A stretch of 64,000 bases of DNA from Lytechinus pictus. Taxonomy: Eukaryota. Where the stretch lies: NCBI RefSeq assembly GCF_037042905.1, contig NC_087252.1, forward strand, positions 5,148,001-5,212,000, read 5' to 3'. A program made the position numbers and the translations under genes. Each line of letters starts with the position of its first letter. Position 1 is the stretch's first letter. Below the pieces are notes generated by a model, which saw nothing but the letters and a program-made list of their open reading frames with translations, was not told the DNA's origin and did not search any database. Positions 16,686-53,654 of this stretch are shown here, in pieces.

Positions 16686-17009
16686 CTACAACACTCAACT
16701 CCGTATAGCCTCTTTTGTCCGCTAACGCTATCGGTACAACAAGGGATGAGTAGGTCGTCTCGTCGTGAACAGTGATGTTTCTAATGATCAAGCTGTAATC
16801 CTTGGTGATGCTGAACCTCTCAAAGCCCGGTACAGGATCTGTAATACCCTGATAGTCTCGGGCTACGAGCGATGCTCCGACGTCTGGTGCTCCAGTGAAG
16901 TTGTGTTTGTACCAGTAGACTGCATGTGCAGGAACGGAGAAATAACAGGGTAGGGAAATATTTCCGCCTCGCACCGCTGTTAAAGACTCCTCTGTGTGAA
17001 GGCGGAATG
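16686..17009 (-). CDS. Ig-TM gene exon 1 of those identified: V-set Ig domain (signal-peptide exon not located)
   Basis: CTCACAG|...|GTAAG, 324 nt, phase 1-1. GGNISLPCYF...VYWYK...RFSITKDYSLIIRNITVHDETTYSSLV...TELSV. Confidence 0.88.
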
Positions 17010-17053
17010 CTGTGAGAGCAAAAGTACAATAATTTCTGTAATATATATATATA

Positions 17054-17993
17054 CAGTGCTTATAAAAAAAGTTTACACTTAGAAAAAAATCCTGTAATAT
17101 CCTAAAGATTTTTCCACATTTTAACATTGCTACAGATCAATTTAAGCAACTGACGATATAACTGTCAAAAAATATTTCCGCTTGAGTGAGCACCACTTAC
17201 TTTTGAAAAGTTAGTGAAAAATGATTTGCGCATAACTTTGAAATAGTTATGCGAATGAAGAACACGTTGAATTTAGCTAGTAAAATTGATTTGAAGATAT
17301 ATTTTACCTTTTAACTTGTTTCCTTGCCCAAAACATCTCGAAGAGTGCATTGCGCCCCACCCCACTCCCCCACACACCGATGCCATCGTGACGATATTTG
17401 CTTTACACTGAGCTGTGATGTACATGAAATGGCTTAGGCTTGATTTTCATCTTGTTAATCATTGTCAAGCTTAGAAAAAGTGTGAAGAAACAAGTATTAA
17501 ATAAAAATGAAATGTAAACACACTTTAAATGATAAAAACTTAGTGAAAAAATGCTGGAGACGTCTGATATAAACTTTTGTTCAGATTTAGTTATGTCTTC
17601 AGATCCAGCTGGCACAAAAAGGGTAAAGGTTGTGCTTACTAAGTTTAGAAATTTCAATTTGGGTGGCAAAATTGTTACAAAATGCTTGAATGTATCTGTT
17701 TTATTTCAATTGACTAAAAGTGCAAGTGTATGAGAAATGTTTCGCAGGGTAAATTTGATTTCGCCCCTTTCCCTTGACACAGCGTGAAAACGAGCATTTC
17801 TGCGCAAACAGAATTCTGCGAGCATTACAAAAATGGACAGTGCTCACTCAAGTGTATCATTCTGTCAAAACTTTTACTTTCATTGGATGGATGAGACTCA
17901 AACCTAAGATTATACGTGAAAAAAATACCCACATGTTGTATATTTTTAATTCCCAGGGCTTTTTCAAAGTGTAAATTTTTTTGATACGCACTG
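17054..17993. mobile_element. Tc1/mariner-type non-autonomous element
   Basis: TA|CAGTGCTTATAAAAAAAG...TTTTTTGATACGCACTG|TA, inserted in a TA run. Confidence 0.75.
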
Positions 17994-18272
17994 TATATAT
18001 TTTTTCAACATATTTTGTTAATTTTTCATCCAAAATCGATTAAATAAACGCAAAGTAAATATTTACACAAAGTTTACCAATCTTCATTACGAGCATGACT
18101 AGTGTACAAAATTAGTTTTACAATGGTATACGTGGCTTAAATCAAGGTTCCCCAGAGCTACATACCCTTTGGAAACTTTGGTGTTTGGTGAGGCCGAAAA
18201 AATCTCTCTGACGGGAATCGAACATTGACCCCCAGCATAGAATGCTTGTGTCTTAACCACTAGACCACAGAG

Positions 18273-21200
18273 GTATGAGGCGCCGAATGTACCAATATTA
18301 TATAGAACAATTATTTGTTATATAATCATTATTTATTAAATAATAACTATTATTTATATATAATTTACATTTTATTTGTAAATAACTACTATTATATAAA
18401 ATATCATTTCTAATTATTTATATATAATTCCAAGTAATACTTCATTATTTGTAAATAATAATAGTTCGACATTCCATTATTTATAAATAATGATTATTTG
18501 TTTTTCATTATTTATAAATAATGATTATTTGTTTTTCATTATTTATAAATAATGATTATTTGTTTTTCATTATTTACAAATAATGATTATTTGTTTTTCA
18601 TTATTTATAAATAATGATTATTTGTTTTTCATTATTTATAAATAATGATTATTTGTTTTTCATTATTTACAAATAATGATTATTTGTTTTTCATTATTTA
18701 TAAATAATGATTATTTGTTTTTCATTATTTATAAATAATGATAATTGGTTTTTCATTATTTATAAATAATGATTATTTGTTTTTCATTATTTACAAATAA
18801 TGATTATTTGTTTTTCATTATTTATAAATAATTTGTTGAGTTTTCCATTATTTATAAATAATGATTATTTGTTAAATAATGAAAACGTCTACTTCATTAT
18901 TTATAAATAATTTTTTCGAGTGCACCATTATTCTCATTATTTATAAATAATCATTATTTAATGTTCGAGTTTTCCATTATTTATAAATAAAGATTATTTG
19001 TTAAATAATGAAATATCTACTTCATTATTTATAAATAATAATTTTGTTTCAATATCCCATTAATCATTATTTATAAACAATTGTTACAGTTTGCCATTAT
19101 ATACAAATAATCATTATTTATATACAAATAACCATTATTTATTAAATAATGCCATTATTTATTAAATAATGCCATTATTTATTAAATAATGGAAAACTCG
19201 CTATAACATGCAAATGTGGGACCGCCCATGATATGAATATTCATGATGCGATTTCCTTTTTCGTGATTTTTCTTCACAAATTTTTGTCCATTTCCTCTTC
19301 ATAATGACATTTCTTGAAGCAATTTTCTAGGGATATGGTCTGATTGTAATATTCTTCATTTTCTATATAACTTCGTCTTCGTAGAAATATCAAAAAGTGT
19401 AATTTCATACGATTTTTCCTACAGTTCACAATCCCCATAGGCGCGCGTGTACGGTAGGGACAACCGGTGAATCGACGGAGTGCTCTTCATCGAAATACTA
19501 CGTTGGTTGGTCCCCGGAAGTGGCGGGCGGAATTTAGCCCGAATCCTCGATGGAAGTCGATCAAGTGCATATGAGCTGAGAGAGTGAAATATCAGTGTAC
19601 TTGTACAGGCCCTTCTACTTTTTATAAATATTTCTTGTTGCTTTTTTTGTTAAGTTAATTTTTCCTGGTGTAGAGATAAGTTTCAGTTCTAATAATGCAC
19701 TTCAAATACATTTTGGAGTGTCTGTTTGAGGCGTTTGGGGCGATTTCACCCTGGCCCCAAAATGCTCGCAACGACAATACGGGGGCATGATGACCCCTAA
19801 ATTTTAAAAAACTTATTTTTCTATTGAAAATTATCACAAAATTCACCAAAAGTGTGCACGAAAGCCTTCGTATTTCACTTTTAAAACTCCAAAAAGTGCC
19901 CAAATGACAAGCTTGGTCGCTTCGCTGTGTCGCTTTCAACTTGAGAACGTTTACGCGTCTGCTTCCCCCCCGGGGCCCCCCTCCTCCGAAAGAAATTATG
20001 TATACGGCCATGCTCTAAAGAGCCTGGTACATTGATTTATGTATACTTCATTTTCATTATTTTTATCTCATTATCATCATGGCCTTACGCAGAATTTTTT
20101 CCGGGGGGGGGGTGGGGGGAGCAGGACGCGCGTAAACTTTCTCATAAAAATCTTGAAAAAGCGAAGCGACCAAGCTTGTCATTTGAGCTTGGTCGCGTCG
20201 CTGTCTCGCTTTCAAGATTTTTTTGAGAAACTTTACGCGCGTCCTAGCTGCTCCCCCCCCCCCGGTAAAAATTCTGTGTAAGGCCATGATGATAATGTGA
20301 TAAAAATAATGAAAATGAAAAGTACATATAAATCAATGTGCCATATGCTCTTTTGAGCATGGCCGTTCACAGAATTTCTTTCGGGGGGTGGGGGCAGACG
20401 CGCGTAAACGTTCTCAAGTTGAAAGCGAGACAGCGAAGCGACCAAGCTTGTCATTTGGGCTTGGTCCCGTGGCTGTCTCGCTTTCAAGATTTTTTTGAGA
20501 AAGTTTACGCGCGTCATGCTCCGGCCCCGGCCCCCCTGGAAAAAATTCTGCGTAAGGCCATGTTGATAATGAGATAAAAATAATGAAAATGAAAGTATAC
20601 ATAAATCAATGTGCCAGGCTCTTTAGAGCATGGCCGTATACAGAATTTCTTTCGGAGGAGGGGGGCCGGGGGATATATCGAAGCAGACGCGTAAACGTTC
20701 TCGTTGAATGCGACACAGCGAAGCGACCAAGCTTTTTGGAGTTTTAAAAGTGAAATACGAAGGCTTTCGTGCACACTTTTGGTGAATTTTGAGATAATTT
20801 TCAATAGAAAAATAAGTTTTTAAAAATTTAGGGGTCATCATGCCCCCGTATTGTCGTTGCGAGCATTTTGGGGCCAGGGTGAAATCGCCCCAAACGCCTC
20901 AAACAGACACTCCAAAATTTATTTGAAGTGCATTATTAGAACTGAAACTTATCTCTACACCAGGAAAAATTAACTTAACAAAAAAAGCAACAAGAAATAT
21001 TTATAAAAAGTAGAAGGGCCTGTACAAGTACACTGATATTTCACTCTCTCAGCTCATATGCACTTGATCGACTTCCATCGAGGATTCGGGCTAAATTCCG
21101 CCCGCCACTTCCGGGGACCAACCAACGTAGTATTTCGATGAAGAGCACTCCGTCGATTCACCGGTTGTCCCTACCGTACACGCGCGCCTATGGGGATTGT

Positions 21201-22395
21201 GAACTGTAGGAAAAATCGTATAAAATTACACTTTTTGATATTTCTACGAAGACGAAGTTATATAGAAAATGAAGAATATAACAATCAGACCATATCCCTA
21301 GAAAATTGCTTCAAGAAATGTCATTATGAAGAGGAAATGGACAAAAATTTGTGAAGAAAAATCACGAAAAAGGAAATCGCATCATGAATATTCATATCAT
21401 GGGCGGTCCCACATTTGCATGTTATAGCGAGTTTTCCATTATTTAATAAATAATGGCATTATTTAATAAATAATGGCATTATTTAATAAATAATGGCATT
21501 ATTTAATAAATAATGGCATTATTTAATAAATAATGGTTATTTGTATATAAATAATGATTATTTGTATATAATGGCAAACTGTAACAATTGTTTATAAATA
21601 ATGATTAATGGGATATTGAAACAAAATTATTATTTATAAATAATGAAGTAGATATTTCATTATTTAACAAATAATCTTTATTTATAAATAATGGAAAACT
21701 CGAACATTAAATAATGATTATTTATAAATAATGAGAATAATGGTGCACTCGAAAAAATTATTTATAAATAATGAAGTAGACGTTTTCATTATTTAACAAA
21801 TAATCATTATTTATAAATAATGGAAAACTCAACAAATTATTTATAAATAATGAAAAACAAATAATCATTATTTGTAAATAATGAAAAACAAATAATCATT
21901 ATTTATAAATAATGAAAAACCAATTATCATTATTTATAAATAATGAAAAACAAATAATCATTATTTATAAATAATGAAAAACAAATAATCATTATTTGTA
22001 AATAATGAAAAACAAATAATCATTATTTATAAATAATGAAAAACAAATAATCATTATTTATAAATAATGAAAAACAAATAATCATTATTTGTAAATAATG
22101 AAAAACAAATAATCATTATTTATAAATAATGAAAAACAAATAATCATTATTTATAAATAATGAAAAACAAATAATCATTATTTATAAATAATGGAATGTC
22201 GAACTATTATTATTTACAAATAATGAAGTATTACTTGGAATTATATATAAATAATTAGAAATGATATTTTATATAATAGTAGTTATTTACAAATAAAATG
22301 TAAATTATATATAAATAATAGTTATTATTTAATAAATAATGATTATATAACAAATAATTGTTCTATATAATATTGGTACATTCGGCGCCTCATAC
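18273..22395. mobile_element. 4,123-bp non-coding foldback (palindromic) element with 4-bp TSD AGAG
   Basis: AGAG|GTATGAGGCGCCGAATGTACC...GGTACATTCGGCGCCTCATAC|AGAG; arms ~1.9 kb. The empty site (GACCACAGAGACGGG) is seen in the intact repeat copies near 63343-63357 on the minus strand. Confidence 0.92.
18475..18835 (+). repeat. 31-bp AT-rich tandem array in the left foldback arm (mirror at ~21835-22195)
   Basis: Unit CATTATTTATAAATAATGATTATTTGTTTTT contains the 18-bp palindrome CATTATTTATAAATAATG. Confidence 0.9.
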
Positions 22396-23544
22396 AGAGG
22401 CGGGTCAGAGGCTAGGGCAAAATCGATCCGACTGACCGTCAGATAAACAGATTTTCGACCTCACCGATTTAATTTCCTTTGTCGGGTGTAGATGGGTTTT
22501 GAACAATGACAAGCCATCATGCCTCAGCTGGATCAAAGCAAATGCTTAGACACAGTACATTGCATGCAACATATTTCTCACATATACATGTAATACAAAT
22601 ATTCTGACTCCATTCCGACTCCTTTCCTGAATTTTTTTAATTCCCACGAATGAATTAATTCCCATTATGGCAACCATTATAGGTAATGATGCGTTTGTAA
22701 CTGTATGAGCCCTTATATATGCAAATGTGCCAATATTTACAAAAATAAAAAGGAAAGTCCTTGAATATAGAAAACCTAAAAAAAATATCGCCCAAACGCT
22801 AATCTGACATTCTTTGCTTAAGATATTAAAAACTCTTGCAGCCTCACGGTTACAAACTTATCTTAAAGAAAATATTTTATATTTAAAATTTTAGTCAGGT
22901 CATCGTCAGTTTTATGGTGTCGAAACCGCTCTTCTTAGGATAACGAATGGTGATATTGGTTTCATTGGACAAATTCGAGGAAGTTATCCTCACATTAGGT
23001 TATCCTTACCTTGTTAGATTTTTTTCAGCTGCCTTCGACACTAAAGACATGACATTCTTTCAAAACGCTTAGAACATACATTTTGAATTAGCGACAAGGT
23101 TTTGAAGTGATTCCAATCATATCTTTTGGACCGAAGTCACGGTGTTGTAGGAAATTAGCGAATTGAGGTACCTTTTCAAATTTCCAACAACAAAATATGT
23201 CGCCCTCTACGTTCAAACTAAGTAATACATTTCAAGATACTATACATGACCTGAGTAGTGGTCAGGAGGAACAACTCATTATGCTACAATGTATCTATAG
23301 TACACCCCTATAAACACATGTTTAATATATATGTATATTTATTATATACATGTATGTATGTTCATTATATATGTATGCCAATGTATATATTTCTTTGTCG
23401 CAGGCACGGTTCTGGACTTGACTTGTATTTTATTTTTAAACGATTTTTTTTTCTTAATTTGGTGGATTCATAATATACGGTGCGTCATCTATCGGTTGGA
23501 GCCACGGAAATATTACATGATGTGCATAATGTATAAGAGTTTAA

Positions 23545-27696: not shown

Positions 27697-28435
27697 GGGC
27701 TTGTTACAACCGATAATGTCGCACCAACGCATAATGTCGCAGATTGCGACATTATGCCAAGAGCGTCCGACGCATAATGTCGCAGTCAACGCATAATGTC
27801 GTAGTTTTTCTAACGCATAACGTCACATGTCGCAACGCATAATGTCGCAGCAAATTGTCAACGCATAATGTCACATGTCGCAACGCATAATGTCACAGCG
27901 GTATTTTCTTCAGGACTCGAGCTACACATAAGATATAAAATATGCTTTCACTAATTATTTTGAGACACGAGAAAGAGAATTAAGTGATTTGGAAATGAGG
28001 ATTACTCTTTGTATGGATATTTTATCGGTTTATTGCCATTTCGTCTACTGCCTTTCCCCCATTATCGCATATGGTCTGATATCATTTCGTCTACCATTAG
28101 TTTATAGTCAACTATCAACATAGTCCAATAACCAGTTCGTCTAATCACCATCTCGTCTAATAGCCATTTGGTCTAATAGCCGTTTTGTTTATTATCATTT
28201 AGTCTAATTGTATTTTTTTCAATTGGTCCAATATCCACTTTGTCCAATATCATTACTTCTATTACCTTTTGGTCTAATAGCCAATTGGTCTAATAACCAC
28301 TTGGTCTACTCTAATTTCGTCCATGTTCCATTTGTCTAACTTCAGTTGGTTCACTATTACTTTGTCTAAACCCATTTCGGCTAACAATCATTTGGTAGAT
28401 TTTCCATGGGTACAATCACCAATAGGTCCAATCAC
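27697..28435 (+). repeat. Dispersed repeat with AACGCATAATGTCGC units; inverted copy at 41555-42303
   Basis: About 740 bp of colinear reverse-complement similarity. Confidence 0.8.
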
Positions 28436-28810
28436 CATCTCGTCTAATCATCATTCCGTCCATTAGGCATATTCATTTCATCTTATAACCATTAATGGTA
28501 TACTGGCACTATACCTCTACGGTGACTCTATGTATCATTGCCGACTTGTTGCAGTACTACGCCTGATTTGTGGTTCAGATCAGCTCGCGAGCGCAAAAAA
28601 ACCCTTTACCATCCGCCGACAGGGCATAGGCAGGGAAAGGGCCGGCTCCCCCCCCCCCCGCATAAAAAAGGAAGGGGAACGAAAGAAATGGGAAAAGAAG
28701 GAAAAAGAGAGGAGGGAAAATGAGGAAAAATTAGAGGAGACAGAAGAGTGAATAAAATAGGGTGAGGTGAAGACTTTGAAAAAAAAAAAAAAATTTGTCA
28801 TGTCTCAAAA

Positions 28811-29020: not shown

Positions 29021-31744
29021 TGTACTATATAGGCTAAAATTTTCGCTTCGCGCTCGCATCCACATCTACTTCAGAATTTTCATGCATAGTGCTTGAAAAA
29101 GTGCATAAATTTACCCCTTTTCGGACTGGAATATGAAGTATTTTTAGCTCGCGCTTCGCTCTCGCTTTATATTTGAATGCTTTTCCAGTTCTGATTTGCT
29201 TTGCAAAGTGTACATCGATAATTATTACTATTATTGTTTTTACTATTACGAAGTTATATTATGCATGTGTGTAAAATTAGGTAATGAAAATAAATTTTGG
29301 GGCTGGCCTCACATACAAGCATTGCTTATTTTTGGCAGCCCCTCCGTTTCACTCTAATTTACAAAAAAATCATTTCAGGCAGCTTAATGTCATTAATTGT
29401 GTTTATCAAATCTAGAGGCCTTATTATGTTTTATAAGATGTTATGTTACGTTATACATGTATGTTATGTTATACCGAGGTTCTACCTGACTGCTAAGAAA
29501 GCACGAATACCTGTGAGCAAGCAACCAGGGGACCAACGGCTTAAGGTCCTCTCTGATGGACCTGGTAATGAGGACAAATGCCTTGCCTTTTGCCTGGCGA
29601 CTATTTTAGCTACGGCTTTGGTTTTTTTCTTTGAAAGAAATAACATTTTCGTTTGAATTATTTGTTTTTCTTTCTTTCTCCTCCATTCTTTTCTTTTGTT
29701 CTGTTTTATTTTCTTTTCCCCTTTTTTATTCTTCTTATTTTGTTCCTCTACCTTCTTTTCATTTTTTTTTGTCTGTTTTCTTTTTCTTTCTTCCCTTTTT
29801 TATTCTTCTCTTTTGCCTTTTGCTCTTTTCCTTTTTTTCTTCTTCGTCATTTTTCTTCTTTTCTTTTTTTTGTCTCTAATTTTTTTCTTGTCTTTATCCT
29901 CTCTTTTTCTTCTTTGTATCTTCATTGTTTTCGATATATTATGCACATGGTATCGTACTACAAGTTTTTTTTTTATTATTATTATTGGAAACTGTATAGA
30001 TATATGTAAATAAACAAGTGAAGAAATAAATGAACACTCATAGGAATATATTCGTTGATCAAAATTATTGAGTGATCAGCAAACCATCTATTTAAGATAT
30101 TGATGCCTATTTTTTTTTTTAACCCAGCCTCTGACAGGCCTTTGCTGGCTTAGCCTAGAGGACTCCGTGATGTAAAATGATTTAAAAATATAATCATGGA
30201 GTCCAATGCTGGCTCCCACATATTTTAATTTTTTTTCTCTCTCTTGTTATGTTTTCCATTTTGTTTATTTTGTATACTGTGCATGTATCCTTAGTTTCAA
30301 TTTGAAATGTATGTTGTATTTTTTAATGAGAATTTAAAATAAATAAATGAAATGAAAATATATGCAAATCTCATTATCATCCAACAACCATTTTCATACA
30401 ATATTGATGTATTAATTTGTATTATGTTTGAACGGAGATCGTAAGATAGAGTATAGAATCATGAAATGTGATTATAATTTATATGTTTGTTTATATAGAT
30501 TAATATGTTATCTTTTATCTTCTTGGCATTTTTTAAGCTTCAATCATTGAGTATATAAATCTCTGCGGGATAAGTATAGGCCTATAATTACTAAGAATTG
30601 AGTTGCTCATTATAGGACGCATAATCATGCTTGTCTGATTGTTTTCCTGGCGTCCAATAGGTTTTTTTCTAAAGACATTCCATTCTTTATATTGTTTTTG
30701 CTTAAGAATTAATGAATAATCATAGCGACACTAAATCAGCTTATCTTTACTTCTACTACTATACAATTGAAGAATTGACGCAGAAATCAAATTTTGTGAT
30801 AGATTTTGTCATAACATCCCAATACAAGTTAGGCCTTTATCATGCACCTTTTCCTTTTTTTCTATAACAAGTACGTAGCAAGGAGGCGGTGTGAGGATCT
30901 TTCCCACCCTAACGCCCCCCCCCAAAAAAAAGGAGAAACGGTGATTGCGAAGGGGGAAACAATGGCGAAAAAGATAGCTTTGCGGGATTTTCTTTCTCAT
31001 TCTCTCTAAACATTTGCTTCCGCGCATGTTTGCGAGAAAATCATTGTTTTTCTCATTTGTTTACCTTTCTGTACTACTCCGTTTTCTTATCCCGGCTATA
31101 TTGCTAGTGTGTTTCGTGGCGGCATCAAGTTTTAAAGAATAATATTTGGGAACGGAATTAGTATTAACATTATAGGTCAAAGCCAGGGGCGGAAATCTCT
31201 CCCAAAAGGTAGGGGGGACACAGGGGCGGATCCAGCCTTCGCCAATAGGGGGGGGGGGCGGAAATTTGTTTCAGCCATATTTTCCCCGATCGGCAGCTCG
31301 AAGATGATTTTTGTTTGTTTCTTTGAAGGGATAGTCCTCATTAGTCACTTCTTAGCTTTATTCTTATTAATTAATATATAATATCATAATCCTTATTTAT
31401 ATGATGCGAGCGCGAAGCGCGAGTCAATTTTTTTGGGACATTTTCACCCAAAGAATGGAAATTCTAAGCGCTTTTTGTAACTCAAGCAGAATAGGTATAT
31501 AAGTAAACAATTGATGCGAGCGCGAAGCGCGAACGGAAAATTTCGAGATTTAGTCCTATAATATTTACTGAACGAGACACTCTATTCACGTTTTGTAAAT
31601 CATGAAAAGGATGAGTATTAATAATGCGAGCGCAAAGCGCGAGCAGAAAATTTTTATATACGTTTTGAACTGGTACCTGTTGAAAAGGTAGCTGTTAAGG
31701 ACTGCTTGCACTTAAGTAGTTATAGGTTAGACCTCATACCAACT

Positions 31745-31995
31745 TGACCTTTGATCTTTGACCCATGACCTTTGACCCATGCCCTTTGACCTGGTCAGCT
31801 ATGACCTTTAGCCCGGTCAGCCTTTGACCTTTGGCCCGGTCAGCCATGACCTTTAGCCTGTTCAGCCTTTGACCACATGACCTTTAGCCTGTCAGCCTTT
31901 GACCTTTAGCCCAGTAAGCCATGACCTTTAGCCCGGTCATCCATGCCCTTTACCCCGGTCAGCCTTTGACCACACGACCCGATGGGTTGACCCAG
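31745..31995. repeat. Subterminal array of ~14 TGACC(T/C/A) motifs (mirror at ~36478-36728)
   Basis: Includes TGACCTTTGACCC at 31766-31778, an AGGTCA-type DR1. Confidence 0.8.
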
Positions 31996-33142
31996 ACTTC
32001 CGGCCAGCCACAACGTCACCATGAATCGGTATTACGACACAGTTACGCAACCACGGCCGTGATGTCATATCCCAGGGAATTACCCTTTACCCGGTATTGC
32101 ACCACCGTGGCGCAATCGTCACGTATAGGATACGATGCACAAAACAGACGTATGATTTCTGCACAGTTTCCTATCGAAAAAAGGATCTTTCTCCGCCTTC
32201 CAGCGGATATGTCAACCGCCTCGCATGACGTCACCGGCTACGTAAGCACCGTGATGTCATCCCAGGGAATTCCCCTTATCCCATCGTATCGGTATTGCAC
32301 CACCGTGGCGCAATCGTCACGTATAGGATACGATGCACGAAACAGACGTATGATTTCTACACAGTTTCCTATTGAAAAAATTATCTTTCTTTGCCTACCA
32401 GCAGATATGTCGAACCCGATATGTCAAGTGCCTCGCGGTTCACGAATCGATCACCCCACTCACGACCAACGCCCGTCATTGAACTTGGGATATCCTATTC
32501 AAGGTGAAAGCCGGCTCTCTCTGTCTCTTATTACAACAATTATTGGTAATCCAACATGTGATTATAATCCTGATAACAGTGGCATCTCAAGCTCTACTCA
32601 TTCCAGACTTTCCCCCATCAAAACTCTCTGACTTTTCCATACTGTTTTGTACATACCTCCATACTTTTCATTTTAACTCACATGACCTGCACGGCTCTCT
32701 GACCCGCAAAAGTATACTATATTGAAACCCGTAGACGACTCCTTTCAATCAACTTCATTCATCCGCAGTACAGATGGTGATAACATGAAACACTATACAG
32801 TCAAGGATGATTCTTTATTATTACTATCATTTATTCTATTCCATTTCAATGTAGATAGGTTCAATTAGTGTATAAACAGCAGATTTTGATACAAAGGTAA
32901 AAATAATGTAAGATATGTTCTCAAATTACGTTGTCACAACAAAATAATTAACTGTTCATTGTTAATATTAAAGTGAAGTTCTCGTTTTTTTCTTTTCCTT
33001 CGCTTAACTTATTGGATTGTAACACATGTCTATGGATGGCATTCAGAAAATATGAACACAATGAAGTTCAAACTGTCATTTATGCCCGCATTTATGTTGA
33101 CGGCGTTTTCTTGGATTATTCGACAAGCTGATGTTTGTGCCT

Positions 33143-33793
33143 TTAGTTGTAGGTTCCATCTTCACCCTCCGTTTCTTCTCCACCATCATCATTATCGTCA
33201 TCGTCACCTTGATACTGGAATAAACCATCGAATTGTGAACCATGCCTGGCTAACACTCTCTGTACGGCTTTCCGGAATTCCATGCCATTCTCTAATCTTT
33301 CCGTGAGATCGGACACGATTTCATGATTGATGTCAGCGTCTTCGAGGTACACGTTCTGCTGCAAGAACTGAGAGTACAGATCGAAAAAGATGCGTTTGAC
33401 TGCCCACATTAGTTTCACGTGAGCCTTTGCTTTAGCGTCTTCTTCTTCCATTCCTTCTGAGATGTATTTCTGATATTTTTCGTCTCTCAAGTCCTTGGTG
33501 GCCGTCATGGCTTGCTCTAACCATCCTCGATAAGCGAGGTTGTCTTCAGTTTCTTCCATGTTTGCTGTCATTGACGATTCGTGTCCATCGCTTTCTGATA
33601 CGCTCGTTTCGGAATCACCGTTGGATTCTTCAACTCTTTGCATTTGAGAGGATGGGTCGGATTCTTCATCTTCACTCGTTTCTTCTCCAGTATCATGCTC
33701 AATTTGTTCATGCCTCTGCATGTTATATTTCCTACTAAAAGTTTTATCGCATCGTGAACAAGCGTAACGGTTGGACATATCCAATATATTCAT
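33143..33793 (-). CDS. C2H2 zinc-finger protein with acidic tracts, 216 aa from the first ATG (left copy)
   Basis: YACSRCDKTFSRKYNMQRHEQIEH = C-x2-C-x12-H-x4-H, then an acidic linker, a helical domain and an acidic tail. Intronless; translation identical to the right copy. Confidence 0.85.
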   Translation of the reverse strand: MNILDMSNRYACSRCDKTFSRKYNMQRHEQIEHDTGEETSEDEESDPSSQMQRVEESNGDSETSVSESDGHESSMTANMEETEDNLAYRGWLEQAMTATKDLRDEKYQKYISEGMEEEDAKAKAHVKLMWAVKRIFFDLYSQFLQQNVYLEDADINHEIVSDLTERLENGMEFRKAVQRVLARHGSQFDGLFQYQGDDDDNDDGGEETEGEDGTYN

Positions 33794-33885
33794 GCTGACT
33801 CGATGATTATTTGTTGGGAAATGAAGAAAATTAACGTTCAAACTTGTAATTATACGTAATCATGAAACGCGCGCGAAGGTACTTT

Positions 33886-34283
33886 GATTCTTACGGATTT
33901 TTACGCATTCTTACGGATTCTTACTCATTCTTACGGATTCTTACGGATGTTTACTCATTCTTACTCATTCTTACTCATTCTTACGGATTTTTTACGGATT
34001 CTTACGGATGTTTACGGATTCTTACGGATGTTTACGGATTCTTACGGATGTTTACGGATTCTTACGGATTCTTACTCATTCTTACGGATTCTTACTCATT
34101 CTTACGGATTCTTACGGATTTTTTACGGATTCTTACGGATGTTTACGGATTCTTACGGATTCTTACTCATTCTTACGGATTCTTACTCATTCTTACGGAT
34201 TCTTACGGATTTTTTACGGATTCTTACGGATGTTTACGGATTCTTACGGATTCTTAGGGATGTTTACGGATCCTTACGGATCC
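33886..34283 (+). repeat. 10-bp minisatellite, ~40 units (TTACGGATTC / TTACGGATGT / TTACTCATTC)
   Basis: Directly visible; a shorter inverted array (~24 units) lies at 34364-34609. Confidence 0.95.
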
Positions 34284-34326
34284 ACGTTGGAATGACCCAT
34301 GCTGCATGGGTCATTCTAGCGTGGAT
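34280..34326. other. Central hairpin of the palindromic element
   Basis: ATCCACG-TTG-GAATGACCCATGC-T-GCATGGGTCATTC-TAG-CGTGGAT: a 13-bp perfect inverted repeat around T34303, extendable to 23 bp with two G-T pairs. Confidence 0.9.
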
Positions 34327-34363
34327 GAACATATTTTCCTTGAGATTATATGAAAGCATTGAT

Positions 34364-34609
34364 TAATCCGTAAAAATCCGTAAGAATCCGTAAGAATCCT
34401 AAACATCCGTAAGAATCCGTAAACATCCGTAAACATCCGTAAGAATCCGTAAACATCCGTAAGAATCCGTAAAAAATCCGTAAGAATCCGTAAGAATGAG
34501 TAAGAATCCGTAAGAATGAGTAAGAATCCGTAAGAATCCGTAAACATCCGTAAGAATCCGTAAACATCCGTAAGAATCCGTAAACATCCGTAAGAATCCG
34601 TAAAAAATC
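34364..34609 (-). repeat. Inverted 10-bp minisatellite, ~24 units
   Basis: GAATCCGTAA / ACATCCGTAA / GAATGAGTAA units. Confidence 0.95.
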
Positions 34610-34617
34610 AAAGTACC

Positions 34618-34680
34618 TTCGCGCGCGTTTCATGATTACGTATAATTACAAGTTTGAACGTTAATTTTCTTCATTTCCCA
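34618..34680 (+). promoter_or_regulatory. Putative Pol II core promoter of the zinc-finger gene (mirror at ~33815-33877)
   Basis: TTCGCGCGCG (E2F-like), TATAAT at 34641, and Inr-like TCATTTC at 34671 (~30 nt spacing). ATG at 34702 has A at -3. Confidence 0.5.
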
Positions 34681-34701
34681 ACAAATAATCATCGAGTCAG
34701 C

Positions 34702-35352
34702 ATGAATATATTGGATATGTCCAACCGTTACGCTTGTTCACGATGCGATAAAACTTTTAGTAGGAAATATAACATGCAGAGGCATGAACAAATTGAGCAT
34801 GATACTGGAGAAGAAACGAGTGAAGATGAAGAATCCGACCCATCCTCTCAAATGCAAAGAGTTGAAGAATCCAACGGTGATTCCGAAACGAGCGTATCAG
34901 AAAGCGATGGACACGAATCGTCAATGACAGCAAACATGGAAGAAACTGAAGACAACCTCGCTTATCGAGGATGGTTAGAGCAAGCCATGACGGCCACCAA
35001 GGACTTGAGAGACGAAAAATATCAGAAATACATCTCAGAAGGAATGGAAGAAGAAGACGCTAAAGCAAAGGCTCACGTGAAACTAATGTGGGCAGTCAAA
35101 CGCATCTTTTTCGATCTGTACTCTCAGTTCTTGCAGCAGAACGTGTACCTCGAAGACGCTGACATCAATCATGAAATCGTGTCCGATCTCACGGAAAGAT
35201 TAGAGAATGGCATGGAATTCCGGAAAGCCGTACAGAGAGTGTTAGCCAGGCATGGTTCACAATTCGATGGTTTATTCCAGTATCAAGGTGACGATGACGA
35301 TAATGATGATGGTGGAGAAGAAACGGAGGGTGAAGATGGAACCTACAACTAA
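34702..35352 (+). CDS. C2H2 zinc-finger protein with acidic tracts, 216 aa from the first ATG (right copy)
   Basis: Identical translation to the left copy. AATAAA at 35660 and 35676, followed by a GT-rich tract. Confidence 0.85.
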   Translation: MNILDMSNRYACSRCDKTFSRKYNMQRHEQIEHDTGEETSEDEESDPSSQMQRVEESNGDSETSVSESDGHESSMTANMEETEDNLAYRGWLEQAMTATKDLRDEKYQKYISEGMEEEDAKAKAHVKLMWAVKRIFFDLYSQFLQQNVYLEDADINHEIVSDLTERLENGMEFRKAVQRVLARHGSQFDGLFQYQGDDDDNDDGGEETEGEDGTYN

Positions 35353-38300
35353 AGGCACAAACATCAGCTTGTCGAATAATCCAAGAAAACGCCGTCAACA
35401 TAAATGCGGGCATAAATGACAGTTTGAACTTCATTGTGTTCATATTTTCTGAATGCCATCCATAGACATGTGTTACAATCCAATAAGTTAAGCGAAGGAA
35501 AAGAAAAAAACGAGAACTTCACTTTAATATTAACAATGAACAGTTAATTATTTTGTTGTGACAACGTAATTTGAGAACATATCTTACATTATTTTTACCT
35601 TTGTATCAAAATCTGCTGTTTATACACTAATTGAACCTATCTACATTGAAATGGAATAGAATAAATGATAGTAATAATAAAGAATCATCCTTGACTGTAT
35701 AGTGTTTCATGTTATCACCATCTGTACTGCGGATGTCTACGGGTTTCAATATAGTATACTTTTGCGGGTCAGAGAGCCGTGCAGGTCATGTGAGTTAAAA
35801 TGAAAAGTATGGAGGTATGTACAAAACAGTATGGAAAAGTCAGAGAGTTTTGATGGGGGAAAGTCTGGAATGAGTAGAGCTTGAGATGCCACTGTTATCA
35901 GGATTATAATCACATGTTGGATTACCAATAATTGTTGTAATAAGAGACAGAGAGAGCCGGCTTTCACCTTGAATAGGATATCCCAAGTTCAATGACGGGC
36001 GTTGGTCGTGAGTGGGGTGATCGATTCGTGAACCGCGAGGCACTTGACATATCGGGTTCGACATATCTGCTGGTAGGCAAAGAAAGATAATTTTTTTCAA
36101 TAGGAAACTGTGTAGAAATCATACGTCTGTTTCGTGCATCGTATCCTATACGTGACGATTGCGCCACGGTGGTGCAATACCGATACGATGGGATAAGGGG
36201 AATTCCCTGGGATGACATCACGGTGCTTACGTAGCCGGTGACGTCATGCGAGGCGGTTGACATATCCGCTGGAAGGCGGAGAAAGATCCTTTTTTCGATA
36301 GGAAACTGTGCAGAAATCATACGTCTGTTTTGTGCATCGTATCCTATACGTGACGATTGCGCCACGGTGGTGCAATACCGGGTAAAGGGTAATTCCCTGG
36401 GATATGACATCACGGCCGTGGTTGCGTAACTGTGTCGTAATACCGATTCATGGTGACGTTGTGGCTGGCCGGAAGTCTGGGTCAACCCATCGGGTCGTGT
36501 GGTCAAAGGCTGACCGGGGTAAAGGGCATGGATGACCGGGCTAAAGGTCATGGCTTACTGGGCTAAAGGTCAAAGGCTGACAGGCTAAAGGTCATGTGGT
36601 CAAAGGCTGAACAGGCTAAAGGTCATGGCTGACCGGGCCAAAGGTCAAAGGCTGACCGGGCTAAAGGTCATGGCTGACCAGGTCAAAGGGCATGGGTCAA
36701 AGGTCATGGGTCAAAGATCAAAGGTCAAGTTGGTATGAGGTCTAACCTATAACTACTCACTTAGCCATGAAGGCGTTACATATTTTCAACAATTAAAAGA
36801 TGCGAGCACGAAGCGCGAGCTGAAAAATTTTGAACTTTCTAAAGAAAGAAAGGAAACTTTTAATCAGTTTTTGTAATCGTGAACAGGATAGCTCTATAAT
36901 TTAATAATTGATGCGAGCGCGAAGAGCGAGCAGAAAAAAAAATCAAGATTTAGACCTAAAAATGGGCCACTCTGTTCATGTTTTGTAAATCATAAAAAGG
37001 ATGAGTAATATGGGGTCTTCCTACATTAATAAAGTGAGCACAAAGCGCGAGCAGAAAAATAGTGATATTGTGATCTGAAACTGGATAATGATTTAAATAG
37101 AGAACAAGTTGAGTATCTGAATAAACATGCGCGCGCGTGTTTCATATTTAGACCTAGAATCTAGGCATTCTAAATACATCTTCAATCATGAAAATCATGA
37201 AACTTTGATATTCCGATCTGAAAAAAGAGTCAAGTTCAGCTTTAAATTTCAAGCACTTTGTAGAAAAATTGTAAGGTGGATATGGATCGCACTTAAAAAC
37301 CGGAGCTGATATTTTCATTATTATTACTCTGAGTTTTGACATAGGACCGGGACATCCTTACAACATGTCATCATATGAAAATGATGACTATCTTCCTATT
37401 CCTCTTGCTAAGCGAGATGAAACAAAAGGGACAATTTGATTATTAAATTAATATCATATTTATTAATGCCCGTAATATGAGGGCGCGAAATCTGATGATA
37501 TTATGGCATAGAAAGTGGACATTTCACTTCTGTAATTATGAATAGGATGCATCAGTTAATGTATTTTTAACCATTAATGCGAGCGCAAATTGCGAGGTAA
37601 AATTTTTGATAAACTGTGTCATGAATAGGGGATTATAAGTAGTTTGTTGTATAATCAATATTGAAACATATATAACTCGCCAATCAAAATGCGAGCGTGC
37701 AGCACGCTAGCTGATAAGTCTTAACAATCAGACCTGAAAAGGGATATTTTGAAAACTTTATGAAATACACGAAAATAATAGGTACCTGATAAATCAAAAT
37801 TTGCGAGCGCGCAGCGCAAGCAGCAAATGTTAATATTCAGACCATAAAACTGACATTTTTACAGAGCACTTTTTAAAAATCAATTTGTAAATCACACAAA
37901 ATAATGAAAGTTCGATTTCCGAGGTGAAATATGTTTTGTATATTGACTTCCAAACTTGACATTCGAGCTCCATATTGAACAAGATATTAAATCACCTAAC
38001 AGGCAATGCGAGCGCGAAGCGCGAGCGAAAATTTTCTATAGTGGCACGAAAGATTCTTTTTATTTTTCAAGTCTTCCTCTCATCTTATTTTATGCACTCG
38101 TCGTCCTTCTCTTCTTTTCTCCTCTCTTTTCCCTCCTTTATTCCTTCTTTCTTTCCCTTTCTTCTTTTTTTGCTCCGCCAAGAGAGGGGGGGGGGGGGGG
38201 GCCTCGGCCCCCTGGTCCGCCTACGGGGACAAGAGGCGGGAAATTTGACAAGCAAAAAAAAAGGTTATCATCCCAAAAGTAAGGTCATCTCGTCCCAACT

Positions 38301-39064: not shown

Positions 39065-41554
39065 TAGAACTAGAAGTGCTTCATATAAATGAGTTCAATC
39101 AGGGGCGGATCCATGATTTTCCAAAAGGGGGGCACATTTTTCCAATGAAAAATTTGACAAGCAAAAAAAAAAGTTTTTCAACCAAAAATTAAGGATATTT
39201 CGTCCCCGAAAAAAAAATCGAGAATAAAAAAGAAAAGAAAAAGTCTTCACTGTCAAATGGAAGGGGGCACAGTTCAACACAATTTAACACAATTTTTACA
39301 TCACAAATTTTCATTTTGTTCTCAAAGGGGGGGGGGGGAGCACGAGCCGGCTTTGCCCCCCCCCCCGCCCCCTGGATCCGGCAGTGAGTTCAATGTTTTG
39401 AATTTGACAAGCAAAAAAAAGGTCTTTAACACAAAATTAGAGGTCGTTTCGTAAAAATTTTGTTTAGAGGGGGGGGGGGGGCAGGTGAGGGGTTGATTAT
39501 GCTACTGCCATGCGGTGAATTAAACAACAAATGGTGATTGGAGATTATCAAAGCGGCATAATTTTTTTTTAATTACAATTATTTATTCTAAACATTATTT
39601 TGATATTTCTTTTTAAAGCAGGCAAAATTGTTTTTAAGCATTTCCTTTTGTTTTAAAATCATATTCATTCCTTCCTCATTGTTATAACATGTGAAAAGGA
39701 TAAATAACATGAAATCATTTACATTATTGAATCATAATTCATAATTAAGAAAATCGTAAATTGGTTATTCTAAATTTAAAATTAGAATCCATTTGTAAAT
39801 ATTTCTTTGATATTTCATAATCACAAAGGGAATAATCATAATACGGACTAAACATTTCTGATCTAGAAATCTCTGAATATAATGCACAAGCACACTATTG
39901 ATAAATATTTTGTTCATTTTTAGTATCATTAAATCAAAATAATTTTAGGAAGTTATATAAAAAAAACACACACCAAGCGAACAGTCACGCTTTACCCCCC
40001 CCCCCTTTCCCATAAACAAAGCATACAAAGAATGAAAAGAAGGAGAAAGAAAGAATATAACAAATGACAAAATAAAAAAAAAACTTATCATAAAAAACAC
40101 AAAATGTAACAAAATAAAAATATATATGAAATAAATATTTTTTTCATAAATATGGATCTATTTTGTTTTCATTTTAATAATCATTTTTTCATGAATATAG
40201 ATCTATTTTTTTCCAAATTAAAATGAAAAAATGGTATTGAATTATATGCCTAAATCACGATTTAATTGAATCGAGACGACTTGCCGAAAGTTTTCACTCT
40301 TCTGACATGCATATTCATTAAACTGTGCTGTAAAGGCATGCAGTGACGACATCTTATAAATATTCATATGCGCATGCGCAGAATCTTCTTTCACGTTACC
40401 TCAAACATGGCGATCTCGCGATTGGGACAAAAGTCCGAAAATTGATGCTCTTTTGAAGAATTTAGTGGAATTATATACATCATATATATTTCCAAGATAT
40501 CCTGGCTTAGGAACAGTTTGTTTAGGTAAGATTGATCATAATCGTTAGATTTTTAATTGATTATGATCATCGGTTTTCTAATGCCAAACATCGCGAAGTT
40601 TTGTACTCTGATGATAATGAGTGGTTGCATTCAGGACCTCGACACTGACTAAAAACGTCGTGTCGAGGTCCCCGGGGCAAACTTAACCGCACATTTAGTG
40701 TTCTTGCTGTCCGCAGAGTCCATTAAATCCTTTAATTGATCATCATCAAGGGGTTCAAATCTTGGAAGATTAGCTTCTGCCATCATGCACAAAAAAATGC
40801 GTTTTTAGAACAAAAAGAGATGAAACGTAGGAACAGACCTGGGCCTAGTACTACTACTAGTCTGCAAATTAGCGATCCGCTTAATCGATAATTTACGGCG
40901 AAATGATCGTCTGCGCAGCGCGTATGCGCGTCGAACGCGCGAGTTGTCTGAATTTATCGACCACAAATCGCGGTGAAATTATGGTATCCGCAATCATCGC
41001 ACAGAGCATTTTTTTGCACGTAAACAAATGCGAATTTCACCAAATTTTAACCATGCCCGTTGTTAAGGGGCGGATCAGGGGGGCAACGGGCAGAAATCTT
41101 TTGAACTATGCCCGTTGCCCTTGGAAACCACCTTAGTTTGTTGTTTTGCAGGCATGGTCAAATACATGACCCCACTTTTGACCAATCAGAGGAATGGATT
41201 ATTCGACATTCTTAAAGAGAGGTATATAACATGAAATGATTAAAACATGTATTCAAAATGCCTAAATTCTAGGTCGAAATCTAAAAACAATCCGCGCACT
41301 CAAGTTTATTGAGATACGCAGCTTGTTCTATATTTTTATAACGTGCTTGAATTATCCAGTTTCAGATCAGAATATAATAAAACTTCTGCTCGCATTATTA
41401 ACATTAATATAGGAAGATACCTAGTTACCCATCCATTTTACAATTTACAAAACATTACAAGAGTGTCCTGTTCTTAGATCCAAAATCTATTTTTCGGCTC
41501 GCGCTGCCGTCAATTGTTTAGTTATGTAACTCGAGTCCTGAAGAAAATACCGGT

Positions 41555-42303
41555 GATTGGACCTATTGGTGATTGGACCCATGGCAACGATACCAAATGA
41601 TTGTTAGCCGAAATGGGTTTAGACAAAGTGATAGCGAACCAACTGAAATTAGACCAAATGGAACATGGACGAAATGAGAGTAGACCAAGTGGTTATTAGA
41701 CCAATTGGCTATAAGACCAAAAGGTAATAGAAGTAATGATATTGGACAAAGTGGATATTGGACCAATTGAAAAAAATACAATTAGAATAAATGATAATAA
41801 ACAAAACGGCTATTAGACTAACTGGCTATTAGACGAGATGGTAATTAGACGAAATGGTTATTGGACTATGTTGATAGTTGACTAACTAATGGTAGGCGAA
41901 ATGATATCAGACCATGCGATAGTGGGGGAAAAGGCAGTAGACGAAATGGCAATAAACCGATAAATATCCATACAAAGAGTAATCCTCATTTCCAATCACT
42001 TAATTCTCTTTCTCGTGTCTCAAAATACTTAATGAAAGCATATTTTATATCTTATCTGTAGCTCGAGTCCTGAAGAAAATACCGCTGTGACATTATGCGT
42101 TGCGACATGTGACATTATGCGTTGACAATTTGCTGCGACATTATGCGTTGCGACATGTGACGTTATGCGTTAGAAAAACTACGACATTATGCGATGGTGC
42201 GACATTATGCGTCGGACGCTCTTGGCATAATGTCGCAATCTGCGACATTATGCGATGGTGCGACAATATGCGTTGGTGCGACATTATCGGTTGTAACAGG
42301 GCT
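41555..42303 (-). repeat. Inverted copy of the 27697-28435 repeat
   Basis: GCGACATTATGCGTT units and a shared unique body. Confidence 0.8.
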
Positions 42304-46679: not shown

Positions 46680-48500
46680 ACCTTTGGTTAAAGGTAGATT
46701 GAATGCTTCCTTACAATTTGGAAATCAACTGATGCATCTCAATTTGTTGTAGATGTCAATGAACATGGTTACAAATTACCTTACAATAAGATGATAAGTC
46801 AGCATTGACATCGATCCCGATTTCGTTTCTGAAGCCATTAACGAATTATTATTAAAAAGGGTTTGGTTGTTGAATCCACCACTGCACCCCATGATGTTAC
46901 CCCCTTTCAGATTCAATTCAGAGTTCAGATATAAAAAGAGACTGATTCTTGGTTAACGTTATGTCAACTAACACTTGTGGAAGAACACTATTATACTTGA
47001 AGACTGGAATGTAGTCATGTCTTATTTAAAACAGGGAGATTTTATGCTTTCCTTTGAACTTAAGCAAGGTTATCATCATTATTACATTTTTCAAGTGCAT
47101 GACAAATTGTAGGCTTTAGTTGGGATTTTGGTAGTGGTACAAGGTTTTTCTCCTTTTAGGTGTTGTCATTGGATTGGCAACAGCTACCTTTGTTTTCATT
47201 ACACGATTTAAGCCTATCGTTAATCATTGGCGTATAGAAATGGTATTTTCATTTTTTTTTTGTATATAGATGATTGGGTCGTGCTGCTTCCTTTGATTCG
47301 TATGATACTATGGTCAACAGGTCAAGACGGTGAAAAATGACTTACTTGAAGCAGGTTTGATACCAAATGTTGAGAAATATCTCAATGGACTCCTGTCCAG
47401 TGTTTGGATTGGTTAGGAATACCACGGGAAAGCAGAGTAGCTTATATAAAGATTACTGAAAGAAGGATGAAGGATCTTGAGTTATGTTCAGATTCATTTC
47501 AAGCAGAATTGCCTGAGGTTTCAGAACGAAAGATCGTAGTTATAGTTGGAAAGATACATTGTATCCAGTGTTTGGCACAGTTACTCAAATTAAAACCAGA
47601 TTTATGCATCACGAAATCATCCGGAGGGTACATTGGGATAGGACATAATGTGATCAATAGTGATGAATTAATATTCGTGTTCTTCTTCTGGAGAAGAATT
47701 TGCATATTCTTAACGTAAACATTATTTCTGCTTATTCAGTTCCACAGACTTTCATCTATTCTGATGCAAGTCCATCAGGCTGCGGGGCCTGGGTTTCTGA
47801 GTGCGCAGGCATGAAATGGGATGAGATTGGTTTGAGTTTGAAATGGTTAAAAACTCCACTTGGAGAGAACTCAAGTCAGTAAGTATGACACTGCAAACAG
47901 TTGTATCTCACATGAGACATAAAACTGTCAAGGTCCTCTGTGATAATAAAGGAGTAGGATCGATTGTAAATAAAGGAAGTATGATTGCAGAATTGCATGA
48001 GATGAGTTTACACATCTTTGAGTTGTGTAAAAGAAACAACATTAGTCTTCACGTTCATTGGGCTCCCAGAGAGGAGAACCGTTTTGCAGATGCATTAAGT
48101 CGCATGATAGATTTTGATGATTGGGGTGTGTCAGATGAATTTTTCGGATTTTTGGACAAAATCTGGGGCCCTCACACTGTGGACAGACTTGCGGACGATT
48201 TTAATTTCAAAATTAAGAAGTTCAATTCTAAATATTGGTGTCCCCTAATAGATCATGTTGATCCCTTCTCATGTGATTGGTCGGGCGAGAATAATTGGTT
48301 GGTTCCACCTATCGAATGTATAGAATGTATAGGGCAAGTACTTAAGCATCTGAAGGTTTTGTTCTGCTAGGGGGACTTTGGTTGTTCCATTCTGGCCGTC
48401 TGCACCCTTCTGGCCGATTCTTTTCTCTGAACAAAGTGATTTTCGTTCCTTATTCTCTGAATACTTCAAAATTGATAATCCTCAAGGAATTTTCGTTCAA
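46680..48500 (+). pseudogene. Disrupted RT / RNase H / methyltransferase-like ORF of the DIRS element
   Basis: LKQGYHH, YIDD (~47263), YSDAS, STWREL, CDN, WAPREENRFADALSR, WGPHTVDR...DWSGENNWLVPP; many stops and frameshifts. Confidence 0.88.
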
Positions 48501-49289
48501 GGCAGAAATAATAATAATAAAAAAAAAAAAAAAAAAAACGGTTTGTGAGAGATGGCTGACATGAATGCTGGTATGTAATAAATCCATTTGATGGAGGTTA
48601 ATTCAAAATTATACTGTTGGAATGCAACATGTAATTTTTACACGGCCGCATGGCAGATAGCTGCATAGCTAGGATCCACTTATGCTGCAGAGCAAAGAAG
48701 TGGTGATGAAAATTGGAGAATGTTATGATTATGTAAAAGGATAACCATCGTAAAGGTTGATAAGGAATTGATATGAGATTTCATTCTCAAATTAGTTATA
48801 ATTTACTGGCGGCGGAGCTCAGAATGAAGAAATTGGTGATGATTGAAAACATTCAAAGTCTCAAAATTACAGAATTCTTGTGAATGAAATGTTACAGAAA
48901 GTTTTTTGCAAGTGTTTTAAGGCAAAAATAAATATTTTCGCAAAGGAAATGAATCCCAAAGCTATTGTTTTGCTAAGCCTTCAAGACGATTGAAACGAAT
49001 TATGATATGGAATTGTGATCTAATGAATTTCATACTGAAATTTTAGTGAAAATATAAAACCACCTGGTTTGAGGATAGCTGCATAGTTAATGTTTAATTT
49101 TGCTGTCATGGCTGTAAAACGTATTAGAAGTGATTAAATTTTGAGAATTTGATAAGAATGACTGAACTTGAGAATTTATCACAATTTGAATATATTGTGT
49201 TGAGATAAATATATACCAGCTTATAAGTTTTGTTTAATTTTTCTTAAATCCAGAAATTCTCTTCATGAAGGATATGATATAACTTTGAA

Positions 49290-50222
49290 CAAGGTCTTGA
49301 CAGCTTCGAGAGCTGATAACACTATGAGTAAATACAACAGAGCGTTGAATACCTGGAGAGATTAGTGTAAGCAAAATAAAGTAAATTCTGACACAGCAGA
49401 ACCAGAAGATATTAGTCGCTATCTTATTCATTTGTATCAAAGAGAAGCTCCTTATTCGAGGATAGAATCGGCTTTTTACGCCATTAAGTGGCATTTTGAC
49501 TGCAAGCCAAGGATGTATGTTAATCCCTGTGATCGCAAGTTCATACATATTGTTTTACAATGTTTAAAGAAATTACTAAACAAACCGATCGTTAAGAAAG
49601 AAGTTATAACCCCAGACATTTTGAAAGCAGTTGTTGAGAAGTATGGATCTTCAACGAGTCTATTAGATATTCGATTATGTGCTATGATTTTGATTTCCTA
49701 CGCAGGCATTCTACGATTTGATGAAATGATACATATTCGTAAATGTGATTTAGACTTGTATTTGTCTCATGTGAATACTTTCATCATGAAAAGTAAAACC
49801 GATATTTACAGGCAAGGAGCATGGGTTCTTATAGGTGCTACAAATTCCCCACCTGCCCCGTATTAGCTTTGAGGAAATATTTGATTGCAGCGGGGCTTAA
49901 CGATGCCTCTGATGAAGTATTTCTTTTTAGGCCTCTAAATTACTGTAAATCCAGTAATAGTTACAAGTTAAGACGTGGACAGTTGTCTTATACTAGATGT
50001 TTAGAATTATTGAAAGAGGCGTTGGCGAAAGTAGGGTTGAATCCAAAGAGTTTTGGCATGCATAGCCTCCGAAGTGGCGGAGCCACAGCAGCAGCGAACT
50101 TTGGTGTTCCAGACAGGTTGTTTAAGAAACATGGTAGGTGGAGGTCGGAGACTGCTAAGGATGGATATATTAAAGACAATATGAAGGATTGTCTTTCAAT
50201 TTCTATGAATTTGGGGCTTTAG
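49290..50222 (+). pseudogene. Frameshifted tyrosine recombinase of the DIRS element
   Basis: LRFDE, SKTD, HSLRSGGAT, HGRW..S..Y catalytic motifs, split over ORFs 49432-49866 and 49821-50222. Confidence 0.9.
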
Positions 50223-53616: not shown

Positions 53617-53654
53617 GCGACGTTTCGTCTGCAAGCTGCTAGACTTCGTCAGGC
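53617..53654 (-). ncRNA. Minimal hammerhead ribozyme motif of the Penelope pLTR
   Basis: GC-CTGACGA-A-GTCT(AGCAGCTTGC)AGAC-GAAAC-GTC-GC: both conserved cores, stem II, and palindromic ACGT in place of stem III. Confidence 0.65.

Follow-up and report, generated by a model that had tools for sequence, protein, structure and literature searches.

A palindromic Polinton-type insertion in Lytechinus pictus with recently copied arms around an inherited loop

Short palindromic DNAs were reportedly found in phage phi29 replication by Esteban et al. in 1997, and for pGKL1, a linear plasmid of yeast, derivatives in hairpin and palindrome form are said to have been described by Kikuchi et al. in 1985 and by Kitada and Gunge in 1988. 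The pGKL1 derivatives are helper-dependent palindromes of a protein-primed replicon, in which one end is kept twice around a small unique loop. A Tetrahymena palindrome was reportedly traced to short inverted repeats by Yasuda and Yao in 1991. The replication of Polintons (also called Mavericks), through a racket intermediate and protein priming, is still a model. Palindromic derivatives whose switch points can be mapped would put it to the test with no more than genome sequence; palindromic by-products served that way for phi29. The element described here is useful in this respect: its array variants mark where copying stopped, and its loop can be traced in a second organism label.

According to PMC2175359, the short phi29 palindromes arise when displaced strands are left uncovered. 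In yeast, a duplication made by fold-back inversion is centred on the repeat that seeded it (PMC10622511). For Polintons, a route through a single-stranded racket intermediate has been proposed (PMC4196379), and the polymerases, which contain a terminal-protein domain, prime from the ends (PMC11071308). In PMC8097293, Maverick ends are defined as (AGT)2//(ACT)2 or (AG)3, the former with a 6-bp duplication being the commonest signature; 134 intact vertebrate Mavericks have terminal inverted repeats (TIRs) of 46-1,447 bp, and accessory ORFs sit just inside the termini. Polinton TIRs generally measure 100-1,500 bp (bioRxiv 2023.08.22.554363, in part). Literature searches confined to open-licence papers brought up no description of palindromic non-autonomous Polintons; Repbase and Kapitonov and Jurka (2006) may list such elements.

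The window analysed here, 64,000 nucleotides of Lytechinus pictus contig NC_087252.1, contains a palindromic insertion of 5,043 bp (31715-36757) that has (AGT)2 at its start and (ACT)2 at its end and sits between two copies of CACTTA, both on the + strand (31709..31714 and 36758..36763). The left arm of 2,171 nt (31715..33885, + strand) opens with the first motif, and the right arm of 2,148 nt (34610..36757, - strand) terminates in the second. Both the 5'-(AGT)2//(ACT)2-3' ends and the perfect 6-bp target duplication are those of a Polinton/Maverick. The inverted arms (about 2.15 kb each) and two minisatellite arrays make up more than 95% of the element; the arms plus arrays exceed the Polinton/Maverick TIR range of about 50-1,500 bp. 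Assembly of palindromes is error-prone. Past this palindrome, host sequence resumes as it does at an empty paralogous site, another copy of the same host repeat with one CACTTA (57436-57441); because this site has a single CACTTA, the palindrome was already complete when it inserted and did not arise as a fold-back in assembly. The same boundaries bear on a chromosomal accident at this locus, whether an assembly chimera, a pair of head-to-head insertions or a fold-back inversion after a break. There is good documentation of fold-back inversion at short inverted repeats (PMC10622511), but the end motifs and the 6-bp duplication delimit the palindrome exactly, host sequence continues beyond it as at the empty site, and its loop also exists in a second organism label. 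A chromosomal accident is largely refuted, and we consider it highly improbable.

Searching the ORF lists, with Pfam run on the two long arm ORFs, we found none of the Polinton core genes (pPolB, integrase, ATPase, protease, capsid) among the element's ORFs; since these genes are absent, the element can be only a non-autonomous Polinton/Maverick derivative. Judged by its ends and duplication, it is a non-autonomous Polinton derivative and not an autonomous member, which agrees, as far as the ends and the duplication go, with the parent Polinton that an earlier note on this DNA had inferred. Might it instead be a foldback-type element of a cut-and-paste superfamily? The missing core genes, an ORF without a named Polinton relative and the presence of other long-TIR elements in the window would all suit such an origin, but no Maverick signature is commoner than (AGT)2//(ACT)2 together with a perfect 6-bp duplication, and an intronless accessory ORF near the end fits a Polinton as well; we rate this origin as very unlikely.

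Several other features of the window may be recorded here. A second large palindrome (18246-22422, about 4.2 kb) has segments that are 99% complementary and 31-nt arrays that are AT-rich; its centre is built of 272-nt units in direct and inverted orientation. A pair of inverted arms, each about 730 nt long and 95% identical (27707-28436 and 41552-42275), contain small perfect hairpins, lie 13 kb apart and enclose the Polinton derivative; they probably belong to an older long-TIR element. At 10709-10772, a perfect 30-bp stem with a 4-nt loop lies within a 330-nt degenerate inverted repeat. The intervals 47843-50222, 53639-54802 and 16624-17127 hold RNase H-like (RVT_3) and tyrosine-recombinase fragments, a weak GIY-YIG match and an Ig V-set exon, the last at 16.6-17.1 kb. 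The RVT_3 and recombinase fragments suggest a DIRS-type retroelement remnant, and the weak GIY-YIG match suggests a Penelope-like ORF.

The centre of the palindrome is asymmetric. On its left lies a 10-nt minisatellite (33886..34279, + strand) of about 39.5 units (39 and a partial one; 39.3 copies by TRF), which from its outer to its inner end comprises 10 units without a right counterpart, 17 shared units, a 91-nt tandem duplication and 3 unique units. It is followed by a 47-nt hairpin (34280..34326, no strand assigned) with a 23-bp stem that includes two G.T wobbles on the + strand, by a unique AT-rich spacer of 38 nt (34327..34364, no strand assigned), and by the inverted right minisatellite (34365..34609, - strand) of 24 units (23.9 by TRF), 17 of them identical to the left array and the inner 7 unique. 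The earlier note's description of the centre (about 40 against about 24 units that are not mirror images, a 47-nt hairpin and a unique segment of about 38 nt) proved exact on recount. The hairpin consists of a central T flanked by 23 pairs; its 13-bp core pairs perfectly, and the two G.T wobbles lie at 34289/34317 and 34287/34319. Its region folds with z = -7.0 (equally stable shuffles, 0 of 200), and perfect stems of at least 12 bp occurred once in total in 20 shuffled 64-kb windows. No Rfam match was found within 31700-36800.

When the arrays were written as unit variants, the 9-unit (91-nt) tandem duplication appeared in the left array only, and the inner units differed between the arrays (3 on the left, 7 on the right). 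The longest block identical between the arrays is 175 nt (33986-34160 / 34609-34435); a second register ends at 34251/34435, so that the unmirrored stretch measures 183-274 nt depending on register. The 85-nt centre is the core of this non-mirrored loop (183 nt in the tighter register), and the point at which exact mirroring stops lies inside the arrays (34435 against 34160 or 34251). The spacer has no mirror partner: 12 of its 38 positions pair across the hairpin centre, and its local alignment scores are at most 20 against the left array and against both arms. Mirroring about the hairpin centre is likewise absent over longer flanks (28/70 and 58/169 positions pair), and symmetry does hold outside 34160/34435 when the arrays are taken as the seed. 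The hairpin abuts array units with no foreign sequence at the junction, and its arm resembles an array unit at 8 of 10 letters, a marginal likeness (null 0.048).

These measurements separate the hairpin from the fold-back. The hairpin had been proposed earlier as a short inverted repeat that seeds the palindrome in the manner of Tetrahymena. A duplication seeded in this way is symmetric about the seeding repeat; around the 47-nt hairpin it is not, and because its flanks are unmirrored the hairpin is not the fold-back seed. With the hairpin excluded, any annealing would have been between the arrays, the only candidates and the likely zone. The suggestion that the hairpin serves as a nicking, resolution or origin site found no support either. 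Comparing flip and flop orientations of the spacer says little, since inverting the loop between identical arms amounts to inverting the whole element.

The arms themselves are nearly identical, with 1 substitution in 2,147 aligned positions, a 1-nt indel and a 24-nt deletion. We compared them with relatives in contig runs, 13 of which were listed, 11 of them containing part of the stretch and 4 being compared in detail. In run X1, the nearest copy has 15 differences in 1,734 letters, significantly more than separate the two arms (Fisher p = 5e-5; six of the eight X1 pieces listed, two pieces of a more distant subfamily excluded, gaps uncounted). Both arms carry the window letter at all 10 listed positions where every X1 contig differs from the window, and at four of these (35086, 35374, 35501 and 36460) the other letter stands in all contigs of X1, X2 and X3 that cover the position (difference positions from 40 of 522 rows). 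Since the arms are nearly identical and both carry the lineage-specific letters, they were copied or homogenised after this lineage arose. As in copy-back palindromes, the same end is on both sides and the arms are copied from one another; copying of the terminal arm, which had been proposed beforehand, is borne out as recent arm-to-arm copying. An X1 contig across the arm-array junction ceases to match at 34606, where the left and right junctions part, and a loose X1 end at 35735 matches the left arm. We read this stop and this loose end as probable later losses on the right side.

Is the loop a scar of one event or an inherited feature? A second organism label, organism B, is represented by runs X2 and X3 from two studies, in each of which two contigs cover the 3' arm of the hairpin. 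Position 34317 is C in 4 of 4 of these contigs and 34319 is A in 3 of 4, letters that pair perfectly with the 5' arm of the window's hairpin; T at 34285 occurs in one contig per run. The simplest reading would be a perfect ancestral stem in which wobbles were gained stepwise. A flipped hairpin could yield the same two letters, but a pure flip is hard to square with the X2 contig that has only one of them. Judged from end distances, an X2 contig reaches from about 34253 to 34360 and so takes in array, hairpin and spacer. Record 13 of X2 (471 nt, depth 18.7, 29 differences in 220 placed letters) covers 34507-34726 from its letter 252; going by equal depth and fitting length rather than a printed alignment, it is probably the contig that starts near 34298, running from hairpin through spacer and array, with about 4 extra units, into the arm. 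The zinc-finger arm (see below) thus probably joins the loop on the spacer side in organism B. Because relatives in organism B carry the loop, the array-hairpin-spacer-inverted array arrangement was inherited and is not a one-off scar. The earlier note had assigned array, hairpin and inverted array to the parent Polinton, and the part of that claim which stands is the inheritance of the centre. X1, the run with the best match, has no depth at the three hairpin positions listed; its gaps at the hairpin and terminus, like run X11 (3 contigs), were not counted as evidence of absence. In organism B the ORF has many times the depth of the centre. A different centre may therefore be present in many relatives, although depth is not copy number. 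One X3 contig has an opposite-strand joint, 34502/34606, inside the right array or at its edge (80% threshold); the window structure does not explain it, and it may come from a relative that inverts elsewhere.

The same contigs bear on the idea that the hairpin is an enzyme site for nicking, telomere-type resolution or an internal origin, converting hairpin and palindromic forms into one another. The hairpin is kept in relatives, most covering contigs have letters that turn both wobbles into Watson-Crick pairs, and the three variant pairs seen or implied are all G.T on the + strand, which has a chance of 1 in 8 if the partner of 34285 is unchanged. Against this, resolution at the hairpin should leave symmetry around it and none is seen, Pfam found no nuclease gene among the arm ORFs, and Polinton polymerases prime at the ends with a terminal-protein domain of their own (PMC11071308), so that no internal origin is needed. 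An enzyme site therefore appears improbable to us.

What, then, might the hairpin do? The arms contain degenerate subterminal repeats on the left (31744..31979, + strand; periods of 7/14/22/97 nt), with two copies of TGACCCATG, and mirroring repeats on the right (36493..36728, - strand). The hairpin core 10-mer is the subterminal motif found 59-68 nt from each terminus. TGACCCATG occurs six times in the 64 kb, always within the element: twice per end and once per hairpin arm (31759-31782, 34293-34313 and 36690-36713). The chance mean for these six occurrences of the 9-mer is 0.44, and they amount to one independent coincidence only. For the core motif, comparison with the terminal 286 nt gives a null of 0.0036, and comparison with the whole arm one of 0.035-0.08. 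With a second, 11/13 match, the terminal 100 nt outscores 587/587 tiles outside the element and 20/20 other arm tiles, and 8 of 1,500 shuffles reach its score (p about 0.005); the test was chosen after the match had been seen, which makes it a lead. RGGTCA-type hexamers number 12 in the terminal 286 nt against 41 in the 58.9 kb outside. Such hexamers presumably resemble nuclear-receptor half-sites. The shared motif suggests that the hairpin is a palindromic binding site in common with the termini rather than a cleavage site; most likely it would be bound as a double strand, as a relative of the subterminal motif. A further possible effect is a pause of the polymerase some 30 nt ahead of a switch.

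Each arm carries an outward-pointing ORF of 216 aa (33143..33793, - strand, and 34702..35352, + strand), the two encoding identical proteins with one C2H2 finger, an acidic tract and a helical domain; the finger was the sole Pfam match in the two long arm ORFs. Among 160 candidates, 15 are relatives of this protein; 5 of them are named, all as records of Lytechinus pictus. The family has 39 representatives at 1e-30 or better, a few of which are long multi-finger proteins. A sister subfamily comprises five proteins that are 99-100% identical and are annotated in Lytechinus pictus as products of separate genes, distributed over several large contigs, which points to recent spread (proteins examined: P0002, P0016-P0019, P0001, P0012, P0013, P0015). 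Judged from these sequences, the zinc-finger family is very likely mobile. Other zinc-finger relatives are rearranged, deleted or fused to host gene models. Consecutive identifiers among the relatives were considered as proof of paired genes in other palindromes and rejected, the proteins differing at about 3 and about 10 residues. None of the 10 relatives looked up has an informative name, PHROGs gave only 4 unnamed single-member matches among 16 proteins, and PDB matches fell almost all on the finger, the Atlas being likewise uninformative. We confirmed no locus in viral contigs (queries: ORF protein, alignments A1 and A2) or in metagenome contigs (ORF protein, alignment A2), and exact DNA patterns of the hairpin, array and terminus had no match in viral contigs. 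Across these viral and metagenome scans, the names of relatives and PHROGs, no link emerged from the zinc-finger family to Polinton core genes. The left arm also has an open frame of 236 aa (31921-32631, + strand) that lacks a Pfam match and spans an internal tandem duplication; its right counterpart (35964-36551, - strand) shifts frame at the 1-nt indel, and the frame is probably non-coding.

How could the palindrome have formed? On balance, we lean towards a copy-back derivative that depended on a helper and that fold-back at the inverted arrays, in the course of protein-primed replication, either created or maintained. Observed here are the Polinton end motif, the 6-bp duplication, the near-identical arms, the copy boundary within the arrays, the inner units that are not copies of one another and a loop common to relatives; we infer an asymmetric parent, a helper polymerase and what the hairpin does, and assume different genes beyond the second array. 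The end region of such a parent would run from the terminus through the outward-pointing zinc-finger gene, array, spacer and hairpin to the inverted array, plausibly a divergent regulatory region. During protein-primed strand displacement by a helper Polinton polymerase, (i) the new strand would pass the loop; (ii) its 3' end, in the second array, would anneal to the first array by fold-back or template switch and copy the arm back to the terminus; and (iii) the product, short and with one and the same origin at either end, would be inserted by the helper integrase. Out-of-register annealing and slippage in 10-nt units could explain the 91-nt duplication and the 100-nt loss, and snap-back replication intermediates may continue to re-homogenise the arms. 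The hairpin would be a passenger of the loop, not the seed.

In the main rival reading, the element would be an internal deletion of a long-TIR parent that had arm and array at both ends and lost its core long ago, its TIRs being homogenised through a panhandle. A symmetric long-TIR family would account just as well for a loop found under both organism labels and for arms copied recently: the presence of the loop in organism B makes it old, the ratios of outer-arm to centre depth (1.4-2.4 in X2, 2.3-3.8 in X3) allow two arms per centre, again with depth not being copy number, and non-autonomous DNA transposons usually come about by internal deletion (PMC3014272). However, TIRs of about 2.4 kb with an ORF exceed both published ranges (46-1,447 bp and 100-1,500 bp), the hairpin abuts array units without a foreign junction, and the inner units differ between the two sides. 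We judge such a deletion to be unlikely, well short of the improbability of an enzyme site.

Copy-back at the arrays, our preferred reading, could have a wider bearing, which we put forward tentatively and with some doubt. Animal Polintoviruses might shed copy-back defective genomes at a built-in hot spot of inverted minisatellites, and these might last across species as integrated palindromic satellites, with arms re-homogenised at each replication, a loop hairpin mimicking the subterminal repeats through the same factor-binding motif, and the zinc-finger gene intact and doubled. Such elements would be a fossil record, in genomes, of extrachromosomal strand-displacement replication of Polintons, which so far exists as a model.

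Compared with described systems, the element may work like the palindromic by-products of protein-primed replicons. It shares with Polintons/Mavericks the (AGT)2 ends, the 6-bp duplication, inverted ends and an intronless accessory ORF near the terminus, as far as these are covered in the available parts of PMC8097293 and bioRxiv 2023.08.22.554363; unlike them, it measures 5 kb rather than 13-25 kb and lacks pPolB, integrase, ATPase, protease and capsid genes. Like the yeast fold-back inversions of PMC10622511, it is a large palindrome whose centre holds a spaced inverted repeat, but here the 47-nt hairpin lies in an unmirrored loop, the candidate seed is the inverted minisatellites and the product moved as a unit. 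The likeness to the short palindromic terminal-protein DNAs of phi29, on the available text of PMC2175359, would consist in a palindrome with one origin at both ends made by protein-primed strand displacement. The phi29 palindromes are unintegrated phage by-products and the pGKL1 derivatives are cytoplasmic, unintegrated and without a target duplication, whereas the element in Lytechinus pictus is an integrated germ-line element with an inherited loop and minisatellite arms.
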